From NCBI RefSeq assembly GCF_965641715.1, contig NZ_OZ282456.1: a DNA stretch of 46,125 nucleotides, one strand, 5' to 3'. A model generated the notes under the pieces. It was not told the origin of the DNA and made no database searches. It was given only the letters and a program-made list of their open reading frames with translations. This document shows positions 4,640-45,810 of this stretch, one piece after another; position 1 is the first letter of the stretch; every line of letters begins with the position of its first letter. This DNA comes from Escherichia coli (lineage in GTDB: Bacteria > Pseudomonadota > Gammaproteobacteria > Enterobacterales > Enterobacteriaceae). The position numbers were made by a program, and so were the translations under genes.

Positions 4640-5782
4640 TTATGGTCTGCTTTTCTGTGCCAGCTTATCAGCACATGTTTTTATCAGATCCTGTAGTGTC
4701 CTGGCTGGCAGGTTTGCATCCAGTACGCTGAGTATGCTGTTGTGATCTGCTTGGTCTACTACTTTGCCTGTCGGTGGTAGTAGCTTGAGCTGAGGATTCA
4801 GGTTTTCGTCAAAGCTGATAAGTGCTCTGGCGTTTCTGAGCAGATCAAGAAGTAAGGCTGATATCACATTTTCCTGAGTCATTGCTGGCAGATTTAGCGC
4901 CGCTTTGGTTTTCCCTGTTGCCTTGTCAAACTCCTTGATTAGTTCCTTCCTATAGTTCGGTTCCGTTAATAGCCGATTATGCTCTGTTGCCGCGCGGATA
5001 ATCGTTTTTTCCTGGTACAGTCGTTTAGCCAGATCGCGCTCGTACTGTGTTTTTAACACGCTGCTGATAGCGTTAAAGGCTTCAATGTAGGCTAGCTTGA
5101 TATCCTTCACGCCTGGACCGTCGATACTTTCCATGAGCAAGGTAAATCCGTCTTTTGTCATGCGATAGATTGTTATTTCGCGGTCGCTTCCTTCCAACGG
5201 TCGTTGCTCTTTAAAGAAATGACGCGCCGCAGCTGTGCGAGGAATGCGTAACGCATCGATGGCCATAACGATGGAATTGTTTGTGGTGCTGAATGCCTGG
5301 GCTACATCGGCTGAGGTTGTGAGTGGCTCGTTGTTGCACACCTTAACGTAATACATTGGTTTGGCGTTGAGCGTATCGACAACCTCACGAGCATTGTTTG
5401 GCGAGACGGTAACGGTCGCGGCCGTTTGCGCGTTCTGGTTGAAATAGCAGTCTTCCAGTTTTTCGAACACATCCCAAGCCTGATCGGTTTCGAGCATTTT
5501 GGCGTGACGGGCTGCTCCGTGTTCGGTCCAGAGAATTAGGGAGCGGGCATTTTTACCAACTAACCCGATTGTTTCAGGTCTGTTCTTGAACTCGCGTAAT
5601 TCGTTTTTTTCAATTTTAAAGTAATGCTTTCCGGCTATGAATCGCGTCGTGTTGTTCAGAAAGTTATCAGAAATGTTTTTGATTTTTGTTCCGTATAACT
5701 GCGCCAGAAGTTCAGTTGTAATAACGGGGATCTGGTTATGCAAGATAGGCTGTAGGGTGTTAACGGTCGGAAGCGTTTTCAT
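4640..5782 (-). CDS. Phage antirepressor (Ant-like)
   Basis: 380-aa ORF; N-terminal region with ILWTEHGAARHAKMLETDQAWDVFEKLEDCYF resembles antirepressor N-terminal domains and the C-terminal part resembles KilA-C-type domains, by recall. Confidence 0.55.
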   Translation of the reverse strand: MKTLPTVNTLQPILHNQIPVITTELLAQLYGTKIKNISDNFLNNTTRFIAGKHYFKIEKNELREFKNRPETIGLVGKNARSLILWTEHGAARHAKMLETDQAWDVFEKLEDCYFNQNAQTAATVTVSPNNAREVVDTLNAKPMYYVKVCNNEPLTTSADVAQAFSTTNNSIVMAIDALRIPRTAAARHFFKEQRPLEGSDREITIYRMTKDGFTLLMESIDGPGVKDIKLAYIEAFNAISSVLKTQYERDLAKRLYQEKTIIRAATEHNRLLTEPNYRKELIKEFDKATGKTKAALNLPAMTQENVISALLLDLLRNARALISFDENLNPQLKLLPPTGKVVDQADHNSILSVLDANLPARTLQDLIKTCADKLAQKSRP

Positions 5783-7553: not shown

Positions 7554-8207
7554 TTACGCGGCAGTAGTCAGAGCCTCAAGCTGGTTGATAATCCCCTGAA
7601 TAACGTCGTCTGCCTTTTTGCGTGGCGCAACGTATGAGCATTCAATGAGGCTTAAGCCCTTATCCTGAGCTTTGCTCAGAGCTGGCTTGTGGGGAATGTA
7701 CTTATCGACAACAAAGTATGGCGTATTAGCCAGGTACTCTTGGGCTTCAATATAGTCAGCTTCATTTTCAGCCGCGCCGGAAAACACCATGCAAATTTTC
7801 TTGATTGGCACACCCTTTTTAACGATGCCGTGAGCAGTGTTAACGGTGGTTTCCAGGTCATCGGTAGAGAATCGGGTTGGCAAAATAACCATATCCAGAA
7901 ATTCAGATAGCTTCGGTACTGATTCAGATGCGTAGGCACCGCCATCAACGATAACCAGGTCGTATACTTCTGATTCGATGATTTTCTGGACTTGTGATGG
8001 TGTGCCGCACGGCTGCGCCGCGATTGCTGGTTCGATATTGTTGGCCATTCTGCGTTGTACCCAACGCGTTACCGTTCCGTTAAGCACATCCATATCGATC
8101 AGGCATACATTCCAGCCAGCCTTTGCATAAGCAACTGCTAAAGCACGGGCAATTGTTGATTTGGTTACGCCGCCTTTTCCGTTGAAAATACCTACAGAGA
8201 TAGTCAT
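7554..8207 (-). CDS. parA: Partition ATPase ParA/ParF (Walker-type)
   Basis: Deviant Walker A GKGGVTKST near the N-terminus; ATG at 8207 has GGAG 9 nt upstream (track start 8222 lacks SD). Confidence 0.8.
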   Translation of the reverse strand: MTISVGIFNGKGGVTKSTIARALAVAYAKAGWNVCLIDMDVLNGTVTRWVQRRMANNIEPAIAAQPCGTPSQVQKIIESEVYDLVIVDGGAYASESVPKLSEFLDMVILPTRFSTDDLETTVNTAHGIVKKGVPIKKICMVFSGAAENEADYIEAQEYLANTPYFVVDKYIPHKPALSKAQDKGLSLIECSYVAPRKKADDVIQGIINQLEALTTAA

Positions 8208-8222
8208 TTGTCGAGACTCCAT

Positions 8223-8824: not shown

Positions 8825-9481
8825 TCATAACCAGTTGACAACACTAACTACGCGGCCCAGAACTTTATAACGCTTAAATTCCTCGTTATTCAGATGCTTA
8901 GTGTTCATTTCAGCATCCCTTTCGGTTGACAGCATAACAGCATTGTCACCCGGTATGACTCTACAGTGCCTCAAAACAACCAGGCCATTTCTGTCTTCAA
9001 GGGCATAGATCCCCTCATGAATCTCTGTATCGTCTGTATTAATCAGGACTTGGGAGCCAGGGGATATTGTTGGTGACATTAACTCATCGTTGCTCTGGAG
9101 AACTGACAGAGACGATGGGTTGATGTTCTTGCTTCGTAGAATCTCCTGTTCTATCGCCAGCACTGGCTTTTCTCCGGCGTGCGATGCTATGTCATTTTTT
9201 ATAGCTACAAGCCCAGGAATAACAGGAGCGTTAGTATTCTGGGGTGGGAACGGGTTATCTGTTAAGCACGCGATATAAGGCGCTGATGCTTTCAGGGCGT
9301 GCGCGATTTTCTTGATGGCAGGTATCGATGGTTGTCTTAATCCGGCCTCATAGTTCTGCAAGGTGCTTAAGCCTATTCCAGTGACTTGCTGGAGATCTCC
9401 GGCAGTCATGCCGGATTGTTTCCGTAGAGTCTGAATGCGCAGACCTATTTCTTTCTTGATGTTCTCGTCGTTGCTTTTCAT
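8825..9481 (-). CDS. CI-like prophage repressor (HTH XRE domain plus S24 LexA-like peptidase domain)
   Basis: N-terminal HTH (LRKQSGMTAGDLQQVTGIGLSTLQNYEAG); C-terminal domain with the layout of self-cleaving CI/LexA repressors. Confidence 0.8.
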   Translation of the reverse strand: MKSNDENIKKEIGLRIQTLRKQSGMTAGDLQQVTGIGLSTLQNYEAGLRQPSIPAIKKIAHALKASAPYIACLTDNPFPPQNTNAPVIPGLVAIKNDIASHAGEKPVLAIEQEILRSKNINPSSLSVLQSNDELMSPTISPGSQVLINTDDTEIHEGIYALEDRNGLVVLRHCRVIPGDNAVMLSTERDAEMNTKHLNNEEFKRYKVLGRVVSVVNWL

Positions 9482-14036: not shown

Positions 14037-14432
14037 ATGTCAGCAGAACCAATTTCCGGTACGGCCGTTGCTGCTGGTGGCCTGATGGGTGCCAGCGTTT
14101 TTGGTATTGCAACTGGTATTGATTACGGCGTTGTATTCGGGGCATTTGCTGGCGCTGTTTTCTATGTTGCTACAGCGGTGAATATTAGCCGTCTCAAGCT
14201 GATTGGCTATTTCTTTACATCGTTCATTGTTGGAGTGATTGGAGCGCCGTTAGTTGGCTCATTTCTTGCCAAATGGACCAGCTACAACGATCGTCCTCTG
14301 GATGCGCTTGGTGCGGTTATTGTGGCTGCATTGACCATTAAAATCCTCACGTTCGTAAACAGCCAGGATCTCGGTAGCATCTTTGGAATGCTTTCCCGCT
14401 TACGTGGAGGGGGTTCAAATGGTAAGCAGTGA
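14037..14432 (+). CDS. Holin-like membrane protein
   Basis: 131 aa with several hydrophobic segments; first gene of the lysis cassette. Confidence 0.45.
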   Translation: MSAEPISGTAVAAGGLMGASVFGIATGIDYGVVFGAFAGAVFYVATAVNISRLKLIGYFFTSFIVGVIGAPLVGSFLAKWTSYNDRPLDALGAVIVAALTIKILTFVNSQDLGSIFGMLSRLRGGGSNGKQ

Positions 14433-14715
14433 CCCGTCAGCACTGATTAATGCGGTGCTTTGCACAGTAATAGTAATGGCGCTGATGCTTTATCGACGGA
14501 AAGACTCCAGGCATCGTCCATTTGTTTCCTTTCTGGCTTATATCTACGTCATTGTATACGCCAATGTTCCCTTCCGTTATGTGTTCGGTCTTTATCAAGA
14601 ATCCCACTGGCTGGTGGTTATTGGAAATCTGATTATCTGCATCGTTGTTCTGTATTTCAGGGGCAATCTGGCGCGGATAGTTGACGCATTAGGGTTTAAT
14701 CATGACCAAAGATGA
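14419..14715 (+). CDS. Second membrane protein of the lysis cassette (holin/antiholin-like)
   Basis: ATG at 14419 with GGAGG 8 nt upstream; about three predicted transmembrane segments; track frame 14383-14715. Confidence 0.4.
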   Translation: MVSSDPSALINAVLCTVIVMALMLYRRKDSRHRPFVSFLAYIYVIVYANVPFRYVFGLYQESHWLVVIGNLIICIVVLYFRGNLARIVDALGFNHDQR

Positions 14716-15244
14716 GATTTTTAACAGTGTTCTTGGAAAAGAGGGCGGCTATGTGGATCACCCTGACGACAAGGGAGGCCCAACAAAGTGGGGCATTACT
14801 CAGAACACTGCCCGTGCTCATGGATACCGTGGCGATATGCGCGATTTAACTCGCGAACAGGCTCTGGAAATCCTTGAGGCTGATTACTGGTACGGCCCAC
14901 GTTTTGACCAGATAGCAACTCTGTCGCCGGATATTGCCGCAGAACTGTGCGACACGGGCGTCAACATGGGGCCAACAGTGGCGTCAAAAATGCTTCAACG
15001 CTGGCTGAATGTGTTCAACCTGCGTGGGAAGCTGTATCCCGATTTGGATGCAGACGGACGAATCGGTCCACGTACCATTAATGCGCTGCGTGCTTATCTT
15101 GGGAATCGGGGAAAAGACGGCGAACGGGTGATGCTGACGTCGCTGAACTGTACGCAGGGCGAACGCTATCTGGAGTTGGCGGAGAAGCGCGAGGCTAATG
15201 AGTCGTTTGTCTACGGCTGGATGAAAGAGCGAGTGGTGGTATGA
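14702..15244 (+). CDS. Endolysin (GH108-type N-terminal domain with peptidoglycan-binding C-terminal domain)
   Basis: N-terminal signature GKEGGYVDHPDDKGGPTKWGIT typical of GH108 lysozymes. Confidence 0.75.
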   Translation: MTKDEIFNSVLGKEGGYVDHPDDKGGPTKWGITQNTARAHGYRGDMRDLTREQALEILEADYWYGPRFDQIATLSPDIAAELCDTGVNMGPTVASKMLQRWLNVFNLRGKLYPDLDADGRIGPRTINALRAYLGNRGKDGERVMLTSLNCTQGERYLELAEKREANESFVYGWMKERVVV

Positions 15245-15519
15245 CTGGTTTGAAGGCCGTTTTGTCATTTATTGGCACAATTATATTGGTTGCATTTGGC
15301 GCGTTTGGTTTTGGTCGTATGAAGGGGCGAGAAAAGGCCGAAGATGAAGCTGAAAAGCAGCGCATTAATGAGAATGCAGCCGCCGTAAAAGCCACTGCGG
15401 AGCGGCGTATAGAAGTGACAAAAGAGGTGGGGAATGTACAGCAGAGTGTTAACCATATGGCTGATGACGATGTTGATCGCGAGCTGCGGGAGTCGTGGAA
15501 GCGTCCCGGTGGTGGTTGA
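15241..15519 (+). CDS. i-spanin (Rz-like)
   Basis: N-terminal transmembrane helix then charged coiled-coil region; follows the endolysin with overlapping start. Confidence 0.5.
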   Translation: MTGLKAVLSFIGTIILVAFGAFGFGRMKGREKAEDEAEKQRINENAAAVKATAERRIEVTKEVGNVQQSVNHMADDDVDRELRESWKRPGGG

Positions 15520-15812: not shown

Positions 15813-15888
15813 GGCCCCTTAGCTCAGTGGTTAGAGCAGGCGACTCATAATCGCACGGTCATCGGTTCAAATCCGGTAGGGGCCACCA
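15813..15888 (+). tRNA. tRNA with CAT anticodon (Met by anticodon; sequence resembles the lysidine-type tRNA-Ile2)
   Basis: Manual cloverleaf: 7-bp acceptor stem GGCCCCT/AGGGGCC, D-arm GCTC-AGTGGTTA-GAGC, anticodon loop CTCATAA, T-loop GGTTCAAATCC, 3' CCA encoded. Confidence 0.8.
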
Positions 15889-16195: not shown

Positions 16196-16783
16196 ATGGA
16201 GGCAATTGCATTGTTTAATCTGATTTATGCAGATCCCCCCTGGGAATACAAAGACAAGTGTAAGGATGGGAATCGTGGAGCTGGTTTTAAGTATCCAACG
16301 ATGAAAGCTGAGGAGATTGCTCGTATTCCTGTCTGGCAGCTTGCTAATCCTGAATCGTGTTTGTTGGCCATGTGGTGGGTTCCGACTCAGCCAGAAGAAG
16401 CGTTGCTGGTGGTTAAAGCATGGGGATTCAGGCTGATGACCATGAAGGGCTTCACATGGAACAAATGTGGTAGCCGACAACCAGATAAGCTGGTGATGGG
16501 GATGGGGCATATGACTCGTGCAAACAGTGAAGATTGCTTGTTTGCGGTAAAAGGCAAACTGCCGACCCGTCTTGATGCGGGGATCATTCAGTCGTTTACA
16601 TCGCCTCGTCTGGAGCATTCTCGGAAGCCTGATGTGGTCCGTGACAAGCTGGTAAAGCTGTTAGGTGATGTTCCTCGTATTGAGCTGTTTGCTCGCGGTG
16701 ATTTACCTGATGGCTGGCATGGCTGGGGCAACCAGTGCAATGGAGGTATCCAGTTGCATGATGCTCTCTGGCAAGTGGCATAG
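16196..16783 (+). CDS. MT-A70-family DNA N6-adenine methyltransferase
   Basis: Catalytic DPPW motif near the N-terminus (IYADPPWEY), size about 195 aa. Confidence 0.75.
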   Translation: MEAIALFNLIYADPPWEYKDKCKDGNRGAGFKYPTMKAEEIARIPVWQLANPESCLLAMWWVPTQPEEALLVVKAWGFRLMTMKGFTWNKCGSRQPDKLVMGMGHMTRANSEDCLFAVKGKLPTRLDAGIIQSFTSPRLEHSRKPDVVRDKLVKLLGDVPRIELFARGDLPDGWHGWGNQCNGGIQLHDALWQVA

Positions 16784-18744: not shown

Positions 18745-18772
18745 TGCAGATACCTGTTTGCTATTTATTTAT

Positions 18773-18802
18773 AAAACCACCTGCGGGTGGTTTTGTTTTT
18801 TT
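18773..18802 (+). terminator. Rho-independent terminator
   Basis: AAAACCACC-TGCG-GGTGGTTTT hairpin followed by a T-run. Confidence 0.55.
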
Positions 18803-19036: not shown

Positions 19037-19660
19037 ATGACAAAACATCTTAATGTGGTTTCTTTACCACTTTCTGTGTTGATTGGTTATGAAAAGAACG
19101 CTCGCACACACTCCGTGGAGCAGGTAGATCAGATTGTTGCCAGCATACAGGAGTACGGATGGACTAATCCGATCCTGATAGACGAGAACAACGTTGTAAT
19201 TGCTGGTCATGGTCGAATTGCTGCGGCCACTCAGTTGGGGATGGATGATGTTCCCTGCATTGTTCTGGAAGGGCTAACGGAGAATCAGAAGAAGGCATAT
19301 CGTCTGGCCGACAACCGTATTCCGCTGAATGCTGGTTGGGATGAAGAGCTGTTAAGCGCGGAGCTTGCAGATCTTGCGGCCGATGATTTTGCTCTGGACT
19401 CAATTGGTTTTACTCAGCGCGAACTGGATAACTTATTGAGTGCGGCAGTCTACGATGACACAGAGGGTATGGATATCCCATTTGAGAAGGATGAGGCCAA
19501 ATCAGGCGTAAAAGTTCAGTACCTGTCATTTGGAGGTCATAAAATCCCGGCAACGGATGAGGAAGCGGATCGTTTTGACTGCGCGGTGTCTCGTTATGTT
19601 GATGATAATGGCAGCTATATCGGATTTGTATCCGCATTGCTGGCTGGGGAGGTGTGCTGA
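19037..19660 (+). CDS. ParB N-terminal (ParB/Srx-like nuclease) domain protein
   Basis: Motifs YEKNARTHS and VIAGHGR typical of ParB-like domains found in phages; paralogous to 22327-22917. Confidence 0.6.
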   Translation: MTKHLNVVSLPLSVLIGYEKNARTHSVEQVDQIVASIQEYGWTNPILIDENNVVIAGHGRIAAATQLGMDDVPCIVLEGLTENQKKAYRLADNRIPLNAGWDEELLSAELADLAADDFALDSIGFTQRELDNLLSAAVYDDTEGMDIPFEKDEAKSGVKVQYLSFGGHKIPATDEEADRFDCAVSRYVDDNGSYIGFVSALLAGEVC

Positions 19661-21033
19661 TGCTTCACCTCAATTACGACATAACGCACCTACGCGGCGC
19701 GGAATATAACCCGCGTTTTATCGGTGAGGATGATCTTGCGAGGCTGGCAGAAAGCGTCAGGGAGCTGGGGCTTGTGAAGCCATTGATAGTGCGCGGCGAT
19801 TTGCTGGTGGCGGGACACCAAAGGACGAAGGCGCTACGTAAGTTGGGAATAACGCGTGCTGCGGTGTATGTGTTGCCCTGTGAAACGACGGTATACGACG
19901 AAGTACGGTTTAACCAACTGCATAACGGAACGGATTTTGATAGCGGAGATGAGCGTTGCAGGGTGTCCGGTCTGGAAGATAAGCATGGTTTTGTTCAGGT
20001 ATCGGCAAGCCAGATCTCAGGCAATATGCGCGCGAAAATGGCATATGTTCGAAAGAACATAGCGGAACTGGTTATCAAGTATGGTCCGTGGGGGGGTTGT
20101 GTTGCGACTCAGTCTGGCGAGGTTATTCACTGTGCTCAGTATGCATTAGCAGCGAAGATGACGCGCACACCGCTAACGGTGTTTGTGATCCCTGATGTTG
20201 AGAAGGAAAAATACCAAAGTTATCTGAATAAAACTTATGGTGTATTTGAGTATTCTCATCTGGAGAAAACAACATACATCCAGACGTATGCGCAGCTTAT
20301 GCGGTTGCGTAATGGTGGCAGCCTGAAATCAAACCTGTATGAGTCGTTGATCCTCCCGATCATTGCCAAGACGCCAAGAGGAATTGATTTTGGTTCGGGG
20401 CAGGGAGACTACGCGCGAATGCTCAGGGCAAAGGGGTATAACCTGCATGATCTCGAGCTTTTCCGCCGTAAGGGCGCAGGAAACACTCTGGATAGGGCTG
20501 CAACAAACCGAATGATTGATACGCTGGTGGACGACTTAAAAACGCGAGGGCGTTACGACTACGTGATTTGCGATAGCGTTTTGAACTCGGTCGATAGTGT
20601 CGAGGCTGAATGGTCCGTTCTGACGGTTCTGAAAGGCCTGTGTAAAGCTGGTGGGTCAATATTCTTTTCTGGTCGTAGCCGTGGAGAGCTGGAAACAGTC
20701 CTGAAGCAAACACAAGCGGCGAGTTCCAAAAGCCGGCTTTATTTTATTGATCATAACGGTTTTACCGCGTTGTACCGGAAGGGGCACTGGTTTTACCAGA
20801 AGTTTCACTCTGATGATGAAGTGAAGCAGTTGTGTCGTGTACATGGTTTCAGGATTAAGCGGTCAATATTCAACTGTAAGAGCTGGTATTTGCACGTCAT
20901 TAACGATGATTCCCTTAGTTGGGCGAGTCTGGAGAAAGCTGTTCGTTTTGAGTTTGAGTTGCCGTTGCCTGGTGGTTCAACAATCGGACGATCTGATGAT
21001 GTGCTGGCGGCTTTCCGGCCGTTGATTAAGTAG
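19654..21033 (+). CDS. ParB-N-terminal-domain protein fused to a Rossmann-type SAM methyltransferase-like domain (no DPPY/NPPY motif seen)
   Basis: N-terminal LVAGHQRTKA ParB-like motif; GIDFGSGQGDYA glycine-rich motif and YDYVICDSVL; no PP[YFW] catalytic motif found by eye. Confidence 0.45.
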   Translation: MLMLHLNYDITHLRGAEYNPRFIGEDDLARLAESVRELGLVKPLIVRGDLLVAGHQRTKALRKLGITRAAVYVLPCETTVYDEVRFNQLHNGTDFDSGDERCRVSGLEDKHGFVQVSASQISGNMRAKMAYVRKNIAELVIKYGPWGGCVATQSGEVIHCAQYALAAKMTRTPLTVFVIPDVEKEKYQSYLNKTYGVFEYSHLEKTTYIQTYAQLMRLRNGGSLKSNLYESLILPIIAKTPRGIDFGSGQGDYARMLRAKGYNLHDLELFRRKGAGNTLDRAATNRMIDTLVDDLKTRGRYDYVICDSVLNSVDSVEAEWSVLTVLKGLCKAGGSIFFSGRSRGELETVLKQTQAASSKSRLYFIDHNGFTALYRKGHWFYQKFHSDDEVKQLCRVHGFRIKRSIFNCKSWYLHVINDDSLSWASLEKAVRFEFELPLPGGSTIGRSDDVLAAFRPLIK

Positions 21034-21049
21034 TGTGTAGGAGGCGCTG

Positions 21050-21769
21050 GTGGCTGACAGAATTGAGATAAAGATGGATTTTTCTTCTCAGGATATTCAA
21101 CGACAACTCCAGCGCCTTGAAGAACGCGAATTGCCGTTCGCAATGGCGCTTGCGGCAACCAGAACGGCAAAGGCTTCTCAGGCTGCGATTAAGAATGAAA
21201 TTAATCGGGTATTTGACAGGCCCACGCCGTGGATTCAGAACTCTACTTACGTTTTGGCCGCAAAGAAGAGTGATCCTACAGCCATTGTGTATGCTCGTGA
21301 ATGGGGAGGAACGCCAGCCCCTGTAACGTTGACTCCGCAAATCGAAGGTGGCCAACGACAGTACAAACGCTCAGAAGGGGCGCTAAGGGCTGGTGGATAT
21401 TTGCCTAACGGCTGGCAGCTTGCTCCTGGTCCCGGCGCAAAGCTGGACAAATACGGGAATATTTCGCGGGGGCAATTACAGCAGGTCTTATCTGGCCTAA
21501 GAGTTCAGCGAGATGCGCATCAAAATCGCCGTCAGGGCAAGCCTACGGAGTTTTTTGTTGTTCGACCTGGTACAAGTAACCCGCTTCAACCAGGCGTCTG
21601 GCAGCGCGTTGGGCGGCGTCCTACGTTGATCCTTACGTTTATCCAGCAACCTAACTATTCGCAGCGTCTTGATTGGCATGGCGTGGCGCTGCGTGCTGGT
21701 GAGGATGCGTTTGCTGATGAAGTCACAAAGGCTATTGATGACATTCTTTCTAAGACCTTCTCTCGTTAA
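21050..21769 (+). CDS. Hypothetical protein
   Basis: 239-aa ORF between the ParB-like genes; no recognisable family. Confidence 0.4.
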   Translation: MADRIEIKMDFSSQDIQRQLQRLEERELPFAMALAATRTAKASQAAIKNEINRVFDRPTPWIQNSTYVLAAKKSDPTAIVYAREWGGTPAPVTLTPQIEGGQRQYKRSEGALRAGGYLPNGWQLAPGPGAKLDKYGNISRGQLQQVLSGLRVQRDAHQNRRQGKPTEFFVVRPGTSNPLQPGVWQRVGRRPTLILTFIQQPNYSQRLDWHGVALRAGEDAFADEVTKAIDDILSKTFSR

Positions 21770-21959
21770 TCATCGTGTGGTTGATGGTGTTGTTATGCAG
21801 AGTGTATTCACTGTGTTCTGTAGTGTCGCTCGCTGGCTGTCTGTGGGGGAGCACGAGCATCGTTTCATCGTCCGGCAGAATTGGGTCCTTCTGGCCAAAA
21901 GCGTTGGATGCGGGTCATTCGAACCCCGATGTTCGGCTAGCTAAACGTGAAAAAAGTTA

Positions 21960-22326
21960 GGTTAAAAGTTGCGGTAAAAGAAATTTACTCATCTCATTGA
22001 AAAATATCGGGAAAACGTGATTTTTTGCTGTATTTGTGCTGGTAAAAAGAAAGTAGAAAATTTTCTTTTAGATCATCAAGATACGCGCAGATCTTTAACC
22101 AATGTGATGTTGTTCTGATAAAAATCGTTATAAATCATGCAAATACATCCAATCTTTTAACCAAAACACTATCGCAAGATCCTTTTTACTTATAAAAACT
22201 TAATAAAATCATATAATTATGCTGGTTTGTGTGATTTTTTATGAGTAAAAAGATCGTCATTTTTCTCTTTTAGTATCAATAAGTTAAACAGTTTTCTTTA
22301 ACCTGTTGTGTTATGGCGGTTAAAAA
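21960..22326. other. AT-rich non-coding region with GATC-containing motifs and short direct repeats; candidate cos/packaging or regulatory region
   Basis: About 370 bp without a credible ORF; AGATCA, AGATCT, AGATCC and AGATCG motifs; ATCTTTTAACCAA repeated at 22087-22100 and 22151-22164. Confidence 0.3.
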
Positions 22327-22917
22327 ATGGCTCTAAAAATCGAATATTTACCAGTCGGTAAGCTGCTCAGATATGCCAAAAATTCACGGACTCATTCAGA
22401 TGAGCAAGTTGAACAGTTGGTGAACAGTATCCGTGAGTTCGGTTTCACTAATCCTGTGCTGATCGATGAAAAGAATGAACTGATTGCGGGGCATGGGCGG
22501 CTTGCAGCAGCCGAAATTCTGGAAATGGATAAAGTTCCGGCGATTCGGTTGAGTAACCTTTCTGAAAAACAGAAGAAGGCGTACAGGATTGCAGATAACA
22601 AGCTGGCCTTAAATGCTGGCTGGGATATGCAGCTTCTGGCCGAAGAAGTCAAAGAGTTAATGGATGATGATTTTGATATTGATCTGCTTGGGTTTAATGA
22701 TGCAGAGCTTGACGAAATGTTAAGCGATGAACAGCCGCAGGAAGAAGACGATAATTCTTCCCCTGTTGTTCAAATTAAGTACCTGGCTATTGATCAAGAA
22801 CGTATTCCCGCGACGGATATGGAAATTGCATTGTTGCTGGATGTTTATCGTCAGTACCACGACGCGCATGAAACGCATGAGGGATTTGTTCAGTATCTTG
22901 CTAATGGTTGCAAGTAA
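22327..22917 (+). CDS. ParB N-terminal (ParB/Srx-like nuclease) domain protein
   Basis: YAKNSRTHS and LIAGHGR motifs; similar over about 130 aa to the 19037-19660 product. Confidence 0.6.
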   Translation: MALKIEYLPVGKLLRYAKNSRTHSDEQVEQLVNSIREFGFTNPVLIDEKNELIAGHGRLAAAEILEMDKVPAIRLSNLSEKQKKAYRIADNKLALNAGWDMQLLAEEVKELMDDDFDIDLLGFNDAELDEMLSDEQPQEEDDNSSPVVQIKYLAIDQERIPATDMEIALLLDVYRQYHDAHETHEGFVQYLANGCK

Positions 22918-23468
22918 TGGCCATCGTCAGTAAGTCAGAGTTTGCCCGCCGGAAAGGTATTTCTCCGGCAATGGTTACGAAGCTCTGTCGTTCCGGTCGC
23001 ATTCCAGTGCTGAAAAGCGGCAAGCTGGATTTTGATAAAGCCAGTGCGGCTTATGAAGCGAGCCGACAGGTTGGTCGTGAGGTATCTGCTGAAAATGGAA
23101 AAAGAGGGCATGGGATATCTTCGGAACAACCAGAGTTACCCGCTGATGATGCCGGATTAGCTGGTGGTACTTCCGGTGTTGCGGTGCAATTCAACAAGGC
23201 TAAGACCGCAGAAAAAATTTATCAGGCAAAGCTGAAACGCCTTGAATTTGAAGAAAAGGAAGGCTCTCTCATCGCTAAAGATGCGGTCAGGGATGATGCA
23301 TTTCTGGCAGCTAATGAATTGCGTAGCCGCTTATTTAGTATTGCTCCAAGAGCAGCTCCCCGTTGTGAAGGCAAAACAGCCAGGGAGATCGAACGCATTA
23401 TTGAAGACGAGATTAATTTTGCGCTTCAGGCGCTCCAGGAATCCCGATTTATTAAGCAGGAAGAATAA
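22917..23468 (+). CDS. Terminase small subunit
   Basis: N-terminal HTH-like SKSEFARRKGISPAMVTKLCRSGRIP; immediately upstream of the large terminase; ATG at 22917 overlaps the upstream stop (TAATG). Confidence 0.5.
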   Translation: MAIVSKSEFARRKGISPAMVTKLCRSGRIPVLKSGKLDFDKASAAYEASRQVGREVSAENGKRGHGISSEQPELPADDAGLAGGTSGVAVQFNKAKTAEKIYQAKLKRLEFEEKEGSLIAKDAVRDDAFLAANELRSRLFSIAPRAAPRCEGKTAREIERIIEDEINFALQALQESRFIKQEE

Positions 23469-23473
23469 ACCTC

Positions 23474-25330
23474 ATGGGCGAAACAGTATGGAGCACCGCT
23501 TTTTTCCGTGCGCTTCGCCCTAAATCACGGCTAACTGTTTCCGAATGGGCTGATAAGTATCGTCATGTAGCGCCGGGAACGTCTCCAGAGCCAGGGCCGT
23601 GGCGTACAAGCCGAGTGCCATATTTGCGTGAACCAATGGATGTTATTGGTGACGCTGATACAGAAACAGTAGTGATGCAATGTAGCTCGCAAATTGGTAA
23701 ATCCGAATTACAGCTAAATGTTATGGGTTACTTTGCAGATCAGGAGCCATCTCCTCAGTTGATGATTTATCCAACGGTAGAGGCGGCTGAGGCTTTTTCA
23801 AAAGAGCGTATTGATCCGACGTTCAAATATTCCCCTGGTTTGAAACACAAGCTGCATGAAGGGAAAGAGGGGCGCGGTGCAGCCAAAAAGTCCAGCACGA
23901 CTATACGTATGAAGCATTACGCTGGTGGATATATAGCACTTGTTGGTGCTAATTCCCCAGCAGGTCTTGCATCCAGGCCAATTCGAATACTGTTAGCTGA
24001 TGAGATTGATCGTTACGGTGTGACGCAGGAGGGCGACCCACTAAAACTAGGTATTCAGCGTACTACCAACTTTCATAATCGTAAGAAAGTTTTTGTTTCT
24101 ACTCCTGTTTTGGAGGAAACGAGCAAAATCCACAAGTGGTTTAAGCTCTCCGATCAGCGTTACTACCATGTTCCTTGCCCATGTTGTGGCACCATGCAGG
24201 TGATGAAATGGTCGCAAGTCAGATGGGATAAGAGCGATTCAGGTGAGGCGTTACCGGAAACGGCCAGATATGAGTGCTGTGAGTGCGGCGGGATTATGCG
24301 CGGATCTGGTAAACCAGACGTTGATTGGTTGGCGAAGGGGGTATGGATAGCTGAACATACTGGAGTTAAAGGTATTGTTGGTTTTCATATTAACAGTCTT
24401 TACTCCCCGTGGGTTGCATTGTCAGAGCTGGTTGAAGAATTTACGGAAGCAACCAGAAACCGCGATAAAAATGGATTAATGGAGTTTATTAACCTTAAGC
24501 TGGGTGAGCCATGGAAAGAGGATGCTAAAGACGATATCGATCCTGAATACTTGTTGCAACGCAGAATAAGGTTTGAAGAGTTTTTACCAGATGATGTTTT
24601 ATTGTTAAGTGCTGGTGTTGACGTACAGGACACGTATTTAGTTTGTGAATTGGTCGGTTGGGGAAAAGGTAAGGAGTCATGGGGGATAGAATATAAAATA
24701 TTCCCAGGTGATCCCGCACAAGATGTTGTCTGGAAACAACTTGATGAATACTTACTCCGTAGCTGGTCATTCCGTGACGGTCGAAAATTACAGATTTCTT
24801 CCGTTTGTATTGACTCTGGTGGGCATTTTACGACAGAGGTATATCGCTTTACTAAGCCGAGAGAATCAAGGCGAATATACTCTATCAGGGGGCGTGGTGG
24901 GGTAGGTTTACCATTTATAGGAAAGCCAAGTAATAATAACCGTGTGGGTGCTATGTTGTTTAATTTGGGGGTTGATGATGGTAAAGGGACCATCATGGCA
25001 AGAATTAAACTACATGATCCTGGTCCTGGTTATATGCATTTCCCATTAGATTCTGACAGAGGATATGATACCGAATACTTTAAAGGATTATTATCAGAGA
25101 AGAAAATATTTGAATATAAAAATGGGCAGACAAAAGAAAAGTGGGTGAAAGTCTACGAGCGTAACGAGCCTCTTGATTGCCGTAACTATGCAACTGCCGC
25201 GATGGAAATTCTGAACCCTAATTTTAACTGGCTTGCCGAACAGGAAATGCGAGGTAATGTGTATGTGCAGAACTCGTCAGGTATACGTAGAAGACGCCGT
25301 AGAGTTATAAGTAAAGGCGTAACCATATAG
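23474..25330 (+). CDS. Terminase large subunit (lambda gpA-like)
   Basis: 618 aa; Walker A-like QCSSQIGKSE; overall layout of GpA-family terminases. Confidence 0.85.
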   Translation: MGETVWSTAFFRALRPKSRLTVSEWADKYRHVAPGTSPEPGPWRTSRVPYLREPMDVIGDADTETVVMQCSSQIGKSELQLNVMGYFADQEPSPQLMIYPTVEAAEAFSKERIDPTFKYSPGLKHKLHEGKEGRGAAKKSSTTIRMKHYAGGYIALVGANSPAGLASRPIRILLADEIDRYGVTQEGDPLKLGIQRTTNFHNRKKVFVSTPVLEETSKIHKWFKLSDQRYYHVPCPCCGTMQVMKWSQVRWDKSDSGEALPETARYECCECGGIMRGSGKPDVDWLAKGVWIAEHTGVKGIVGFHINSLYSPWVALSELVEEFTEATRNRDKNGLMEFINLKLGEPWKEDAKDDIDPEYLLQRRIRFEEFLPDDVLLLSAGVDVQDTYLVCELVGWGKGKESWGIEYKIFPGDPAQDVVWKQLDEYLLRSWSFRDGRKLQISSVCIDSGGHFTTEVYRFTKPRESRRIYSIRGRGGVGLPFIGKPSNNNRVGAMLFNLGVDDGKGTIMARIKLHDPGPGYMHFPLDSDRGYDTEYFKGLLSEKKIFEYKNGQTKEKWVKVYERNEPLDCRNYATAAMEILNPNFNWLAEQEMRGNVYVQNSSGIRRRRRRVISKGVTI

Positions 25331-40746: not shown

Positions 40747-43065
40747 GTGAGTAAATTATTCTTTACGATGACTGACGCCGGGCGTCAGGAGCTGGTTAAT
40801 GCCAACAAAACAGGAACAAATAAAGTTGAGATTGTTTCTGTTGGTTTAGGTAGTAGATATTATGTCACGTCAACTTCACAAACAAATATAACAAACGAAA
40901 TAAAACGACTTACCACAATAGGTGGCAAAGTTGTTTCCCCTGATACAATTCATGTAACAGCGAAGGATGATAGTAAAGATGAGTATGTTGTCCATACAAT
41001 AGGATTGTATACGAATAAGGGTACGTTGTTTGCTGTATACTCACAAGAACAAGCAATAATAAATAAAGCATCATCTACTATCGCTTTAATATCAAGTGAT
41101 ATAGCAATTAAAACTCTTGATACTAAAAATATTACATTTGGTGATATTGAGTTTATTAATCCTCCCGCGACCGAAACTGTTGTTGGGGTGGCAAGGTTTG
41201 CTAATGAACAAGAAATTGATGCAGGTACAGATGATTCCCTTGCTGTTTCAGCAAAGCGGCTTAAGCAAGCCATTGTGAAACATGAGCAATCACGTAATCA
41301 TCCCGATGCAACTTTAACCTCAAAAGGCTTTGTTCAACTTAGCAGCGCCACCAATAGCTCGTCTGAAACGCTTGCTGCGACGCCTAAGGCTGTTAAGGCA
41401 GCATATGACCTGGCTAATGGCAAATACACCGCACAGGACGCTACCACGGCGCGAAAAGGGATTGTTCAGCTCAGTAGCGCCACTAACAGTGATTCGGAAA
41501 CGCTGGCCGCAACACCAAAGGCTGTTAAGGCAGCGTATGATCTTGCGGCCGGAAAGGCTCCGTCCAATCACACGCATTCGTGGGAGCAGATAACAAATGT
41601 GCCTGTAGCTTCACTGACAGTAAGGGGAATCACTCAGCTCAGTAGTGCAACCAACAGCACGTCTGAAACACTGGCCGCGACATCGAAAGCGGTAAAGGTG
41701 GTAATGGATGAAACGAACAAGAAAGCGCCCTTAAACAGTCCTGCGCTGACCGGAACGCCAACAACACCAACTGCGCCAAAAGGTACTAACAATACTCAGA
41801 TCGCAAGCACGGCTTATGTTATGGCTGCGATCGCTGCCCTCGTGGACTCGTCGCCTGACGCACTGAATACGCTGAACGAGCTGGCTGCGGCGTTGGGCAA
41901 CGACCCGAATTTTGCGACCACCATGACTAACGCGCTTGCGGGTAAGCAACCGAAAGATGCCACCCTGACGGCGCTGGCCGGGCTTGCTACTGCGGCAGAC
42001 AAGTTTCCGTATTTTACGGGGAATGATGTCGCCAGCCTGGCAACCCTGACAAAAGTCGGGCGGGATATTCTTGCGAAATCGACCGTTGCTGCCGTTATCG
42101 AATACCTCGGTTTGCAGGAAACGGTAAATCAGGCTTCTGGCGCATTACAGAAAAACCAGAACGGTGCAGATATTCCGAATAAAGATAAATTCATACAAAA
42201 CACAGGGGCCTGTCGTGCATTTAGCGGTCAGACTGATATCGATGGTTCACAAGGTGCATGGTCGACAGTTGCATTTATCTCGTGGCTGGAGAATAACGGA
42301 GCTTTCCGACATCCATACTGGATGTGTAAAGGGTCATGGTCCTATGCCAGAAACAGGGTTATTACGGATACCGGTTGTGGAAATATCTGCCTTGCCGGAG
42401 CCGTGATTGAGGTTATGGGAACCCGCGGCGCAATGACCATACGCGTTACCACGCCGAGCACGTCCAGCGGTGGCGGAATTACTAACGCTCAATTCACTTA
42501 TATTGATCATGGTGATGCTTATGCCCCCGGCTGGCGACGAGACTACAACACGAAAAACCAGCAGCCTGCATTTGCTTTAGGGCAAACAGGAAGCAGGGTT
42601 GCAAATGATAAAGCTGTTGGCTGGAACTGGAATAGCGGTGTTTATGATGCAGATATCAGCGGTGCATCGACATTAATCCTCCACTTCAATATGAATACGG
42701 GGAGCTGCCCTGCTGTACAGTTCCGCGTGAATTACAGGAACGGCGGTATTTTTTATCGTTCAGCGCGTGATGGTTATGGATTTGAGGCTAACTGGTCAGA
42801 GTTTTACACCACGACCCGCAAACCCTCTGCGGGAGATGTTGGTGCATACACGCAGGCAGAATGTAACTCAAGGTTTATTACAGGTATTCGCCTTGGCGGT
42901 CTGTCATCTGTTCAGACATGGAATGGTCCCGGCTGGTCTGACAGGTCAGGTTATGTCGTTACGGGTTCAGTTAACGGAAACCGTGATGAATTAATTGATA
43001 CAACTCAGGCAAGGCCAATTCAGTATTGCATTAATGGGACGTGGTATAACGCGGGGAGTATTTAA
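40747..43065 (+). CDS. Tail fibre protein (constant N-terminal part plus currently expressed variable C-terminal part)
   Basis: 772 aa; three copies of the fibre repeat [19 protein letters not shown]; crossover site inside the coding sequence at 42104-42128. Confidence 0.8.
42104..42128. other. Left inversion crossover site (gix/cix-like) inside the tail-fibre gene
   Basis: ACCTCGGTTTGCAGGAAACGGTAAA; matches the reverse complement of 45158-45182 at 24 of 25 positions. Confidence 0.7.
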
Positions 43066-43067
43066 TT

Positions 43068-43601
43068 ATGATGCACTTAAAAAATATTACTGCTGGCAAC
43101 CCTAAAACAAAAGAGCAATACCAGCTAACGAAACAATTTAACATCAAATGGCTTTATACAGAGGATGGGAAAAACTGGTATGAGGAACAAAAGAACTTTC
43201 AGCCTGATACGTTGAAAATGGTCTATGACCACAACAACGTTATTATTTGTATTGAAAAGGATGTTTCAGCAATTAATCCAGAAGGCGCAAGCGTCGTTGA
43301 GGTTCCTGATATTACAGCAAATCGCCGGGCTGATATTTCTGGTAAATGGATGTTCAAAGATGGCGTAGTGGTAAAGCGAACTTATACCGAGGAAGAGCAG
43401 AGGCAGCAGGCGGAAAATGAAAAGCAAAGCCTGCTACAGCTCGTTAGGGATAAAACCCAGCTATGGGACTCACAGCTACGGCTGGGCATCATTTCCGACG
43501 AGAATAAACAAAAATTAACCGAGTGGATGCTCTATGCGCAGAAAGTCGAATCTACAGACACCTCCAGCCTGCCAGTAACATTTCCCGAACAACCTGAATG
43601 A
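43068..43601 (+). CDS. Tail fibre assembly protein (current orientation)
   Basis: 177 aa; paralogous to the minus-strand 43630-44160 product (shared [13 protein letters not shown] and [12 protein letters not shown] segments). Confidence 0.7.
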
Positions 43602-43629
43602 GACAAGGCCCGATCGCGGGCCTTAATTT

Positions 43630-44160
43630 TTATTCAGGCTTTTGTGGCCATTCAGGATTTGCCGTATCCACACGGCTGACCAGAACACTGTAGCGTTCCC
43701 ATGCTTCCAGTCGTGTGCGTTCCTCGTCTGTTGCCATATTCAGCCTGACAGCGCGTTCCAGCGGCTGGATGACTGATTCAGCTTCGGAAAGCAATGCGGC
43801 CTTTTGTGATTCGCCTTGTTGTTGCTGTTCGTCTGCCGTATAAATCCGTTTAACTACAGCTCCATCCTTAAACATCCACTTTCCTGAATCATCAGCGCGG
43901 CGGTTGGCTGTAATATCAGGAACCTCAACGACGCTAAAACCTTCAGGGTTAAGCGTGGAGGCATCTTTAGTGATGGCGACAATAATATTATTTGCATCGT
44001 AAACAATCTTTATTGTGTCTGGCTGAAAGTTTTTCACTTCCTCATACCAGTTTTTATCGTCTTCGGACCATAACCAGATAACATCAAAATTCTTTGTTAG
44101 CTGATATTGTTCTTTCGTTTTAGGATTTCCAGACTTAATATTTTTTAAATGCTGCATCAT
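43630..44160 (-). CDS. Tail fibre assembly protein (alternative orientation)
   Basis: 176 aa; paralogue of 43068-43601 on the opposite strand. Confidence 0.7.
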
Positions 44161-45156
44161 TTACACCTGTGCGACGTTATACCATGTGCCATTGATGTAT
44201 TTTTGTATTGGCCTGAAGATGGCTTCATCATCGCCATCTACTTCACCAATGATTCTTAATCCGGTAATTGCGTGTCCGGCTTTTTCATAACGACCACCAC
44301 GCGCCATCAATTGAACAACTCGCGTACCCAGGCGAACATCTCTCACATATCTGGAATCAAAATTGCCATAGTTGCCAGGAATAACTTGCGAGCCACAAAG
44401 CCAGTTACCGTTATTGTCCATGTACGCCTGACCATCGGTGCCATTGGCTGTCCTTGAGTTATTAATCATGTAAAAACCAAACTGGTAGTTACCAAGTCCA
44501 CCGACAAAAAATTTGCGTTCTGCATGGTCTTGTCTTAACAAAGCCTGCGCAGAACTTGTTGATACTGCGTTTCTACCAAAAATGACATTCTGGTTTCGCA
44601 TATCAATCCATGAGGTTGAGCCACTATTAATAGCAAACCTGTTTGCATACACCCAGGCGTTAGTTGTTATATCTCCTGTAACATCCAGACCATGCCCCAT
44701 AGTTATGCGGCCAGTTCTGAGATTAAGCGTAAAGGGACGTAGTGGCCCTATATTACCATTTTCCCCCTCATTCTCTCGTGTAGGGATGATATGCAGGCAT
44801 TCTTCAGAACGGCGAAAAATGGCACCAAAAGATGAATTAAATATCCTCAGTGCATTGACTGTCGATATTTTTACTTCACTGCTGAAAAGAGCTTTAACAA
44901 GAACATACAAAGCATCCCATTTAAGATTCATCAGGTCTTTTGTTGTGGTGCTTTGTTTGCTTCTCCATTTGAAATATTCATTGCCGTTGTCGCCTGTCTC
45001 AAACCACATGTATGAATCAGTGTCACCATCGGCATCATTTTTAAATCCAATCTTCGCCCAGTCAGTATTTCGAATCCAGGCAAGGATTGAGTCATTTTCA
45101 AAAGTAAGCCCACCGGACAAAGTATCGCCATTTTTTTGCACGGCGTTACCAGCCCT
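44161..45156 (-). CDS. Alternative tail-fibre C-terminal segment (silent; no own start, would fuse to the constant part after inversion)
   Basis: Open minus-strand frame continues to the crossover site and encodes LGLQETVN there, identical to the plus-strand fibre at the left site. Confidence 0.65.
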   Translation of the reverse strand, partial: RAGNAVQKNGDTLSGGLTFENDSILAWIRNTDWAKIGFKNDADGDTDSYMWFETGDNGNEYFKWRSKQSTTTKDLMNLKWDALYVLVKALFSSEVKISTVNALRIFNSSFGAIFRRSEECLHIIPTRENEGENGNIGPLRPFTLNLRTGRITMGHGLDVTGDITTNAWVYANRFAINSGSTSWIDMRNQNVIFGRNAVSTSSAQALLRQDHAERKFFVGGLGNYQFGFYMINNSRTANGTDGQAYMDNNGNWLCGSQVIPGNYGNFDSRYVRDVRLGTRVVQLMARGGRYEKAGHAITGLRIIGEVDGDDEAIFRPIQKYINGTWYNVAQV

Positions 45157-45157
45157 G

Positions 45158-45182
45158 TTTACCGTTTCCTGTAAACCGAGGT
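45158..45182. other. Right inversion crossover site (gix/cix-like)
   Basis: TTTACCGTTTCCTGTAAACCGAGGT; contains TTCCTGTAAACCGAGGTTTT, resembling the Gin/Cin crossover sequence as recalled. Confidence 0.7.
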
Positions 45183-45255
45183 TTTTGCGAATTGCCTCTG
45201 TGTCGTCTGAACGATATTTTTTCCCGCTTTTAGCAACAATCGCGGTTTAGAAAGT

Positions 45256-45810
45256 ATGCAATATGGTTATGCGAGGGTGTCAACTTTTGACCAGAATTTG
45301 GAATTACAACTGGAGGCGCTCAGGAGTTTAGGATGTGACCGGATTTTTGAAGATAAAATATCCGGTGCTAAATCAAAACGACCAGGACTTGATAAGCTAC
45401 TTAAGGTGTTACAGCCGGGCGATACGGTTATTGTCTGGAAGCTGGACCGAATGGGGCGTTCTCTGATTCATCTTGTTGATTTACTTAACCATTTTTTATC
45501 AAACAACATTGAGTTTATTTCGATTACGGAAGGGATAAAAATTAGCACTTCAATTGGCCGCTTTGCCTACACGATGCTGAGTGCAGTCGCAGAGATGGAG
45601 CGGGAAAATATGATTGAAAGAACGCGTGCAGGATTGGCGGTGGCAAGGGCTAACGGCAGGATAGGAGGACGCCGCTCAAAATTGGCACCAGAGCAATGGG
45701 AACAGATCGGAAGGCTTATTGCGAATGGTGTTTCACGTAAGCGGATAGCGATTATCTTCGATGTTACCTTATCCACGCTTTACCGCAGGTTTCCGGCTGG
45801 GAATCATTGA
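45256..45810 (+). CDS. Serine recombinase, DNA invertase (Gin/Cin/Hin family)
   Basis: 184 aa; N-terminal YARVSTFDQNLELQ with catalytic Ser context, C-terminal HTH; adjacent to the invertible segment. Confidence 0.85.
   Translation: MQYGYARVSTFDQNLELQLEALRSLGCDRIFEDKISGAKSKRPGLDKLLKVLQPGDTVIVWKLDRMGRSLIHLVDLLNHFLSNNIEFISITEGIKISTSIGRFAYTMLSAVAEMERENMIERTRAGLAVARANGRIGGRRSKLAPEQWEQIGRLIANGVSRKRIAIIFDVTLSTLYRRFPAGNH

Follow-up and report, generated by a model that had tools for sequence, protein, structure and literature searches.

Proteins with a ParB fold that act beyond chromosome segregation are an active topic, and several described systems bear on the genes considered here, a cluster at positions 19037 to 22917 of a 46,125-nucleotide stretch of Escherichia coli DNA (contig NZ_OZ282456.1, RefSeq assembly GCF_965641715.1; the whole stretch is called the window below). 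The 46-kb window is a temperate myovirus maintained as a plasmid, i.e., a phage-plasmid. Its cluster encodes two stand-alone ParB proteins (ParB-a and ParB-b), a protein in which ParB folds are joined to a methyltransferase (the fusion), and a protein of 239 amino acids (aa), all on the plus strand and followed by the terminase genes. Iyer, Zhang, Burroughs, and Aravind (NAR 2013) described phage "ParB-Terminase large subunit (Tls)" loci with predicted DNA modification at packaging (PMC4738411). Kaljević et al. (PNAS 2025) reported Methyltransf_23 among the commonest ParB-fold fusion partners in phages, with enrichment in phages and prophages; they purified phage and bacterial representatives, found that a fusion to an S-adenosylmethionine (SAM)-dependent methyltransferase bound ATP, and suggested anti-defense roles, the ParB fold being able to act as an enzyme or a scaffold (PMC12704722). 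O'Toole et al. (PNAS 2026) described ParB176, a stand-alone ParB of phage origin that lacks a DNA-binding domain and is required for the thymine dioxygenase 5mYOX176 to act on double-stranded DNA (PMC13229309). The first phage ParB that activates a DNA-modifying enzyme was thus published only in 2026.

Comparison of the cluster with described ParB systems

As in the Tls loci described in the available portion of that account, the window has a ParB gene and the gene of a base-modifying type of enzyme directly beside the terminase genes of a phage or prophage. It has this layout twice, once as ParB-a with the fusion and once as ParB-b with the small and large terminase subunits, and the ParB-terminase gene order was also found in 76 viral loci and several prophages. 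The difference lies in the enzyme: those named for Tls loci in the same portion are N6-adenine methyltransferases (Dam-like and of other clades), whereas the enzyme of the window belongs to Methyltransf_23 and lacks an amino-methyltransferase motif. Set against the Tls loci as that portion presents them, it also contains two ParB/Srx folds itself and is paired with a further, stand-alone ParB.

The fusion shares with the class catalogued by Kaljević et al. the occurrence of PF02195 and PF13489 in one phage or prophage polypeptide. That survey gives no function, gene context, second ParB fold, or partner ParB for the class, and its tested proteins (uvig_65837_18 and UBA3002) are only possible members of this exact fusion family. 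In the literature that we searched, PF02195 and PF13489 are mentioned together only in that study (preprint and PMC12704722). ParB-a and ParB-b, for their part, are close to the N-terminal 150 residues of ParB-N6_N4 fusions (phrog_498 and PDLC03229; E values of 1e-38 to 1e-52) and occupy the same genomic slot beside the terminase; unlike those proteins, ParB-a and ParB-b carry no methyltransferase domain, and the methyltransferase of the fusion is not PF01555 and lacks D/N/SPP[YFW]. Like the 5mYOX176-ParB176 pair, the cluster has a stand-alone ParB, composed of a nucleotide-binding and a C-terminal domain, encoded beside an enzyme, and terminases are frequent neighbors; the client of ParB176, however, is a dioxygenase dependent on iron and 2-oxoglutarate that has no ParB domains of its own, and here it is a methyltransferase.

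The core arrangement is routine among phages and its architecture has already been catalogued, so it is not a new kind of system; the module is a distinct, uncharacterized variant of the ParB-terminase modification locus. In the literature searched, we found no earlier description of the second ParB fold, the obligatory partner ParB, or natural triple fusions of the parts. A preliminary description of this DNA, made from the letters alone, had reported a cluster of three ParB-type genes, one of them fused to a methyltransferase-like domain, together with a fourth gene; all four open reading frames (ORFs) are present, and the observation is confirmed, whereas the interpretation offered with it is supported in part. 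The best explanation of the cluster is a packaging-proximal "ParB-terminase" module of a temperate myovirus maintained as a plasmid.

The fusion protein combines two ParB/Srx folds with an intact methyltransferase

The middle protein had been given as 459 aa with a ParB-like N terminus. The N terminus was borne out (Pfam ParB_N, residues 9 to 70, 6.8e-5), but the protein is better begun at the ATG at 19660, which gives 457 aa, as in RefSeq and in cluster P0001; this start overlaps the stop codon of ParB-a as TGATG, an arrangement of translational coupling. Over its full length, the fusion matches phrog_5475, a family of unknown function (1.6e-265). Residues 1 to 90 (19660 to 19929) are a first ParB/Srx domain with the motifs YNPR, AGHQR, and E..FNQLHNGTD, all invariant in the family; the best PDB profile match of this domain is Spo0J (1.9e-8), and its AlphaFold2 per-residue confidence (pLDDT) exceeds 90. 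Residues 100 to 215 (19957 to 20304) are a second, divergent ParB/Srx-like fold, in which HCAQYA stands in place of GxxR and GPWGG and YGVF.Y are conserved; this domain passes the three-dimensional test for the ParB/Srx fold, with fold matches that include SbnI, Srx, and SerK. With the two stand-alone proteins, the three genes together encode four ParB/Srx folds.

Residues 225 to 457 (20332 to 21030) are a class I SAM-dependent methyltransferase of the Methyltransf_23 type. The Pfam profile covers residues 234 to 400 (1.8e-7), and the only Pfam matches in this half are PF13489, PF08242, and PF08241. Besides the profile match, the domain has a Rossmann-type methyltransferase fold, the SAM-binding motif I (IDFGSGQG, the core of the glycine-rich GIDFGSGQG noted earlier), the acidic residue after strand 2 (E266), a motif IV reading CDSVLNSVD, and the conserved basic residues R270, R339, R373, and K381. 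AlphaFold2 places the class I methyltransferase and the two ParB/Srx folds in one confident body (pLDDT 93.9; predicted template modeling score [pTM] 0.90). In an alignment of the window protein with 46 homologues that are 45 to 89% identical to it (47 sequences), 71 columns are invariant over the entire protein and the mean column identity is 57%; the invariant positions of the methyltransferase domain include D243, G245, and G247 of motif I, E266, D305 at the end of strand 4, the D305..N309 S310..D312 pattern in the motif IV region, and several Arg and Lys residues. It is established that the fusion consists of two ParB/Srx folds and an intact class I SAM methyltransferase, with both cofactor and nucleotide motifs intact.

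No [DNS]PP[YFWH] motif was found in any of the three proteins, in agreement with the earlier failure to see D/NPP[YFW], and none matches PF01555, so the enzyme is not an N6/N4 amino DNA methyltransferase; with no PC[QH] (PCQ) motif and no match to PF00145, the fusion is not a C5-cytosine DNA methyltransferase either. The domain matched no NCBIfam or PADLOC family. The catalytic domain had been called degenerate or atypical: atypical it is, as a Methyltransf_23 enzyme without DPPY or PCQ, but with invariant SAM motifs it is not degenerate. The missing DPPY motif, and the "nuclease" label in some database records, could also be read as signs of a decayed ParB-DNA methyltransferase remnant and/or of ParB domains working as nucleases. 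We consider this very unlikely, as the 71 invariant columns include every SAM-binding motif, the structural model is confident, the family numbers 307 clusters of fixed length, and the domain belongs to another Pfam family instead of being a degraded N6_N4 type. A degenerate amino-methyltransferase was accordingly rejected on the grounds of its different Pfam family and invariant SAM motifs. No nuclease family was matched, which leaves the suggestion of a packaging-associated nuclease module unsupported.

The stand-alone ParB proteins are related to methyltransferase-fused ParBs

ParB-a (19037 to 19660, 207 aa) matches Pfam ParB_N (3.6e-5) and phrog_620 (2.9e-74). It is built of an N-terminal nucleoside triphosphate (NTP)-binding-type domain with the motifs NARTHS, AGHGR, and ADN, a helical linker, and a conserved C-terminal tail of ~50 aa; it matches the N-terminal 150 aa of the PADLOC model for ParB-type II methyltransferases at 6e-38 and is the orthologue of the partner gene that precedes the fusion in related loci. 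ParB-b (22327 to 22917, 196 aa) matches ParB_N at 6.3e-8 and phrog_620 at 7.2e-75. The two are paralogous, as had been proposed, with 48% identity across their full length; of the motifs ascribed to both, AGHGR is indeed shared, but NARTHS occurs only in ParB-a and ParB-b reads NSRTHS. All three ParB proteins of the cluster belong to the ParB/Srx family PF02195, with matches to PHROG ParB families down to 1e-75. The phosphate-binding Box II, GxxR, reads AGHGR in ParB-a and ParB-b and AGHQR in the fusion, flanked at the expected positions by Box I (N.R(T)H or YNPR) and Box III (ADN or FNQLHN).

The stand-alone ParBs group with the clade that is fused to DNA methyltransferases (1e-38 to 1e-40 against the N-terminal part of PDLC03229), and most of their phage homologues carry a DNA methylase annotation. 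ParB-b is sister to the clade of enterobacterial partner ParBs in a neighbor-joining tree (without bootstrap), which points to an early duplication of ParB-a, and not to acquisition from elsewhere, as its origin. Among the 76 viral loci, it is limited to four loci of the window's own lineage (L015, L016, L018, and L021) and is partial in a fifth (L019), and all sequences returned by a homologue search with ParB-b as the query were at least 98% identical.

The cluster proteins share the N-terminal fold and the Box I/II/III motifs with the CTP clamps partition ParB, Spo0J, and KorB; they differ from them in having no helix-turn-helix (HTH), no ParA-interaction motif, and no adjacent parA, and in scoring below the cutoff for canonical partition ParBs. 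Against TIGR00180 (cutoff, 58.45 bits), ParB-a reaches 31.0 bits and ParB-b 40.0 bits; the full-length fusion is not among the matches, and its N-terminal half alone scores 18 bits. These results bear on the idea that the three ParBs are centromere-binding proteins that partition the phage-plasmid, an idea that the plasmid state of the element and the database names "chromosome (plasmid) partitioning protein ParB" would favor. We regard it as extremely unlikely. In addition to the low scores and the lack of a detectable HTH or ParA-binding motif, the element has a ParA-type partition ATPase gene with small ORFs of its own nearby (7554-8222, minus strand), 11 kb from the ParB cluster, and integrated prophages and lytic-type contigs also carry the module, invariably adjacent to the terminase. 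The partition role was rejected on the subthreshold TIGR00180 scores, the missing HTH, and the separate ParA locus.

Pairing and position of the module are conserved across phages

Region 19037-22917 is 99% identical to its counterparts in pATCC25922_1 (of E. coli ATCC 25922), Escherichia phage vB_EcoM-613R2, and three Yersinia phages. ATCC 25922 is a standard laboratory strain, which makes the host a highly tractable one. In 5,426 complete E. coli genomes, 77 of the 78 places that match the region are on plasmids of ~48 kb, and the cluster genes are intact and ~99% conserved in 71 of the genomes; the cluster is no chance feature. The fusion family is much wider, with 307 representatives of 50%-identity clusters at E ≤ 1e-30, nearly all of them 450 to 490 aa long, from phages of Proteobacteria, Bacteroidota, and Firmicutes. 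It is compact and extremely conserved, and it brings three ParB/Srx folds to one methyltransferase, always beside the packaging motor.

We compared 76 viral-contig loci, 68 of which include the upstream flank. A stand-alone ParB of ~200 aa lies directly 5' of the fusion on the same strand in 67 of these 68, overlapping it by a median of ~11 nucleotides (nt) under strict gene calling, and the pair was also found in 6 further contigs or prophages, including Bradyrhizobium and Serratia prophages and metagenomic contigs. In Bacteroides phage BS-TP3, the same pair is immediately followed by the small and large terminase genes. When neighboring ORFs were clustered, those conserved besides the ParB were a ~145-aa protein, small terminases, large terminases, and portals; the large terminases beside the module belong to at least four families (GpA, Terminase_6C, TerL_ATPase, and Terminase_3), and the upstream side of the module differs among loci. 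Pairing with a stand-alone ParB is obligatory, and the position at the head of the packaging module is constant. The arrangement had been described as unusual; this fails for the core, since the ParB-fusion pair beside a terminase is routine, but holds for ParB-b and the 239-aa gene, which are lineage specific.

Two proteins of 658 to 659 aa (P0379 and P0384) join a stand-alone ParB, including its C-terminal tail, to both ParB folds and the methyltransferase in a single chain. Together with the TGATG overlap, these single-chain proteins are good evidence that ParB-a and the fusion act as one unit. By analogy with ParB176, the activity of the fusion may depend on its cognate ParB-a, for which the obligatory pairing, the overlap of start and stop codons, and the natural fusion proteins argue only indirectly. 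The ~145-aa protein, which is rich in Cys and His and has the motif FRYFW...HCARCL...CGV..PYRW.NNFH...CRNFQFGA, is encoded 3' of the fusion in 39 of the 73 related loci over which it was counted (e.g., L006:2210-2644, L011:8516-8947, L004:9419-9883, and L010:9473-9973). No Pfam, PHROG, NCBIfam, or PADLOC family matches this protein, which may be a third component of the module; tblastn and hidden Markov model searches found no such gene in the window.

A non-canonical DNA mark as the favored function

The reading that we favor, which we put forward tentatively, is that an NTP-gated ParB complex brings the methyltransferase to replicated phage DNA, where it adds a non-canonical methyl mark before packaging. 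The core would be the two-gene unit of ParB-a and the fusion, forming one NTP-gated complex whose ParB N domains would engage around nucleotide as in ParB or KorB clamps. Late in infection, this complex would load onto replicated phage DNA, the methyltransferase would add the mark before or during packaging by the terminase, and the mark would protect the phage DNA in the next host. What we infer here is that the two proteins form a complex, that their substrate is DNA, and that the mark is placed at this time and is protective. DNA is favored as the target because the stand-alone ParBs belong to a clade otherwise fused to DNA methyltransferases. ParB-b, placed across the candidate cohesive-end (cos) site described below and coupled to the small terminase, might serve the terminase directly, as lone ParBs may do elsewhere; alternatively, it might serve a separate methyltransferase of the phage.

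That separate enzyme is an MT-A70-family DNA adenine methyltransferase of 195 aa (16196-16783, plus strand; phrog_359, 2.7e-102; PADLOC MTase_II, 7.6e-69), 72 to 76% identical to methyltransferases of Shiga toxin 2 phages. Its match in phrog_21315 is to the C-terminal half, and ParB-a and ParB-b match the N-terminal part, so that phrog_21315 appears to be a ParB and MT-A70 fusion; on this similarity, it is speculative that a stand-alone ParB of the window might have the MT-A70 enzyme as a second client. Among the viral loci, the MT-A70 gene is found only in the lineage that also has ParB-b, and its presence there is not independent evidence.

Several points weigh against the favored reading. 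The methyltransferase domain resembles none of the known DNA methyltransferase classes: the DPPY and PCQ motifs are missing, no target-recognition domain was found in the fusion, and the closest relatives by sequence and fold are UbiG, Trm9, and METTL6, which are small-molecule and tRNA enzymes. No HTH_ParB or other DNA-binding Pfam domain was detected in ParB-a, ParB-b, or the fusion. The phage already encodes a conventional DNA methyltransferase in its MT-A70 protein, and a terminase-adjacent location is also what a "first late gene" or a cargo slot would give. In the literature searched, we found no functional study of the fusion family and no experiment that goes beyond nucleotide binding. 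Finally, only host motifs are listed in the methylome of the ATCC 25922 lysogen (PMC12679398); the listing has little bearing on the question, since a lysogen does not express its late genes and since N6-methyladenine, 5-methylcytosine, and N4-methylcytosine were the sole marks called.

Since its domain resembles small-molecule and tRNA enzymes, methylation of something other than DNA is a serious rival, which we nevertheless think rather doubtful. Candidate substrates are a nucleotide or small molecule (a defense signal, or an NTP in the ParB/Srx pocket), RNA (tRNA, for example), and protein, whether the terminase or a virion component; the ParB/Srx folds would then be nucleotide-binding or enzymatic modules, in the manner of sulfiredoxin, SerK, and SbnI, and not clamps, and the role would be anti-defense or host takeover. 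The enzymatic proteins SbnI, Srx, and SerK among the fold matches of the middle domain are consistent with this, as are the absence of DNA-methyltransferase motifs and of a recognition domain, the conserved Arg and Lys of the methyltransferase domain, which suit a phosphate-bearing ligand, and the suggestion of anti-defense roles and of an enzyme or scaffold function for the ParB fold (PMC12704722). On the other hand, the partner ParBs fall in a clade fused to DNA methyltransferases, strict adjacency to the terminase across phyla and terminase families is hard to explain for an enzyme acting on a soluble metabolite, and no defense or anti-defense family was matched.

If the favored reading of a DNA mark is true, it would reveal a new pathway of DNA (or other) modification and a new mode of ParB-gated enzyme control; if DNA is not the substrate, the protein would be a new anti-defense or packaging-control enzyme. 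A bolder version holds that the complex makes a packaging-coupled DNA modification of no known DNA methyltransferase class, nucleotide-gated by a ParB-type clamp, for example on a ring nitrogen, the phosphate backbone, DNA ends, or an already modified base; we judge this version improbable, but if true it would make the proteins a new family of DNA-modifying enzymes in hundreds of phage lineages across bacterial phyla.

A candidate cos site lies within the cluster

The 239-aa gene (21050 to 21769) matches phrog_1924 (2.5e-97), labeled "minor tail protein"; this label is doubtful because the protein has no Pfam match even at E ≤ 10, and it has no NCBIfam or PADLOC family. In Pseudomonas phages F10, MD8, and JBD68, a homologue of this gene closes the right genome end. 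The 239-aa gene itself was found in 7 of the 76 viral loci and, within the module, is confined to the same lineage of the window as ParB-b (the four loci named above and, in part, the fifth). The position hints at a cos-proximal role instead of a tail role. Between this gene and ParB-b lies a gap of 557 bp, which consists of 175 bp at 53% GC followed by 382 bp at 28% GC; the "370-bp AT-rich gap" noted earlier was about right.

A candidate cosN, the 12-nt sequence GGTCATTCGAAC within the partial palindrome GGGGTCATTCGAACCCC, lies in this gap at 21913 to 21924. For two near-identical Yersinia phages, the first base of the GenBank record corresponds to window position 21913 in one and 21925 in the other, on the two sides of GGTCATTCGAAC; this 12-mer is within the best-conserved block of the intergenic gap (three lineages, down to 70% protein identity). 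From these record starts and this conservation, it is likely that GGTCATTCGAAC is the cohesive-end site. On that assumption, the right end of the virion DNA would close with ParB-a, the fusion, and the 239-aa gene, the left end would open with ParB-b, and the cluster would be contiguous solely in the circular or concatemeric form of the genome. A cosB-like, AT-rich region (28% GC) follows at 21960 to 22325 and holds five copies of YTTTAACC, two of them on the minus strand; these are 5 of the 9 matches in the window, found within 366 bp where ~0.04 would be expected (shuffled mean, 4.59 per 46 kb). The TTAACC core is repeated in the same region of the relatives L018 and L021. The YTTTAACC copies could be bound by the small terminase or by a ParB such as ParB-b. 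The AT-rich region also contains three TTGTnCTGaTAAAAA repeats ~75 bp apart (at 22034, 22110, and 22184).

Downstream, the ParB-b stop overlaps the start of the small terminase gene as TAATG. The small subunit has 183 aa from the ATG at 22917, which is also the RefSeq start (22917 to 23468; phrog_57, 7.4e-42), and the large subunit, of the lambda gpA type, follows at 23474 to 25330 (phrog_15, 1e-258), so that the cluster does sit just upstream of the terminase, as was first noted.

This setting suggests a role as a packaging accessory, in which the ParBs would bind near cos or pac and aid the terminase in recognition, cutting, or loading of DNA, while the methyltransferase would regulate this step, either through methylation of the packaging site or of a terminase subunit or as a SAM sensor. 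For comparison, cleavage of the P1 pac site depends on adenine methylation. That the cluster straddles the candidate cosN and the region with five YTTTAACC copies, that ParB-b and the small terminase are translationally coupled, and that the module is found with at least four terminase families are all in keeping with such a role; so too are the lone ParBs that stand directly before the terminase without the Methyltransf_23 fusion in Rhodobacter phage RcOceanus and Vibrio phage Rostov 7. However, the module is missing from most phages whose terminases belong to these families, and the fusion is carried by only 7 of 50,697 cultured phage records, so the module is not a general requirement for packaging. 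Moreover, the gpA-type large terminase has a nuclease of its own and no DNA-binding domain was found in the ParBs, and we consider the packaging-accessory role unlikely.

Other features of the element

A terminator-like hairpin with an 11-bp stem and a T run (18771 to 18796, plus strand), picked up in a consensus scan, lies between the phrog_585 gene and ParB-a, 240 nt 5' of the latter. It may mark the start of the module's transcription unit or a point of antitermination (read-through); promoter and terminator consensus scans of the region gave site numbers no higher than those in shuffled sequence, so the hairpin is a weak candidate. Further upstream are a tRNA gene with the anticodon CAT (15813-15888) and a lysis cassette (14037-15519). 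The tRNA is assigned as tRNA-Met by ARAGORN and in the Yersinia phage record and as tRNA-Ile by RefSeq on pATCC25922_1; the RefSeq label would imply the lysidine-modified Ile2 type.

On the minus strand, the ParA gene (7554-8222), an anti-repressor with a Rha-like domain (4640-5782), and a CI/XRE-type repressor (8825-9481) make up the maintenance and immunity region of the plasmid-prophage, and the related ATCC 25922 plasmid additionally has a RelE/ParE toxin-antitoxin pair. The genes 3' of region 19037-22917 encode the lambda-type terminase, portal, capsid, sheath, and tape measure proteins and an invertible tail-fiber segment. This segment (40747-45810), which resembles Mu G or P1 C, has fiber and assembly genes on the plus strand, an alternative fiber C terminus with its assembly gene on the minus strand (43630-45141), and a DNA invertase gene at 45256-45810 (phrog_125, 1e-79).

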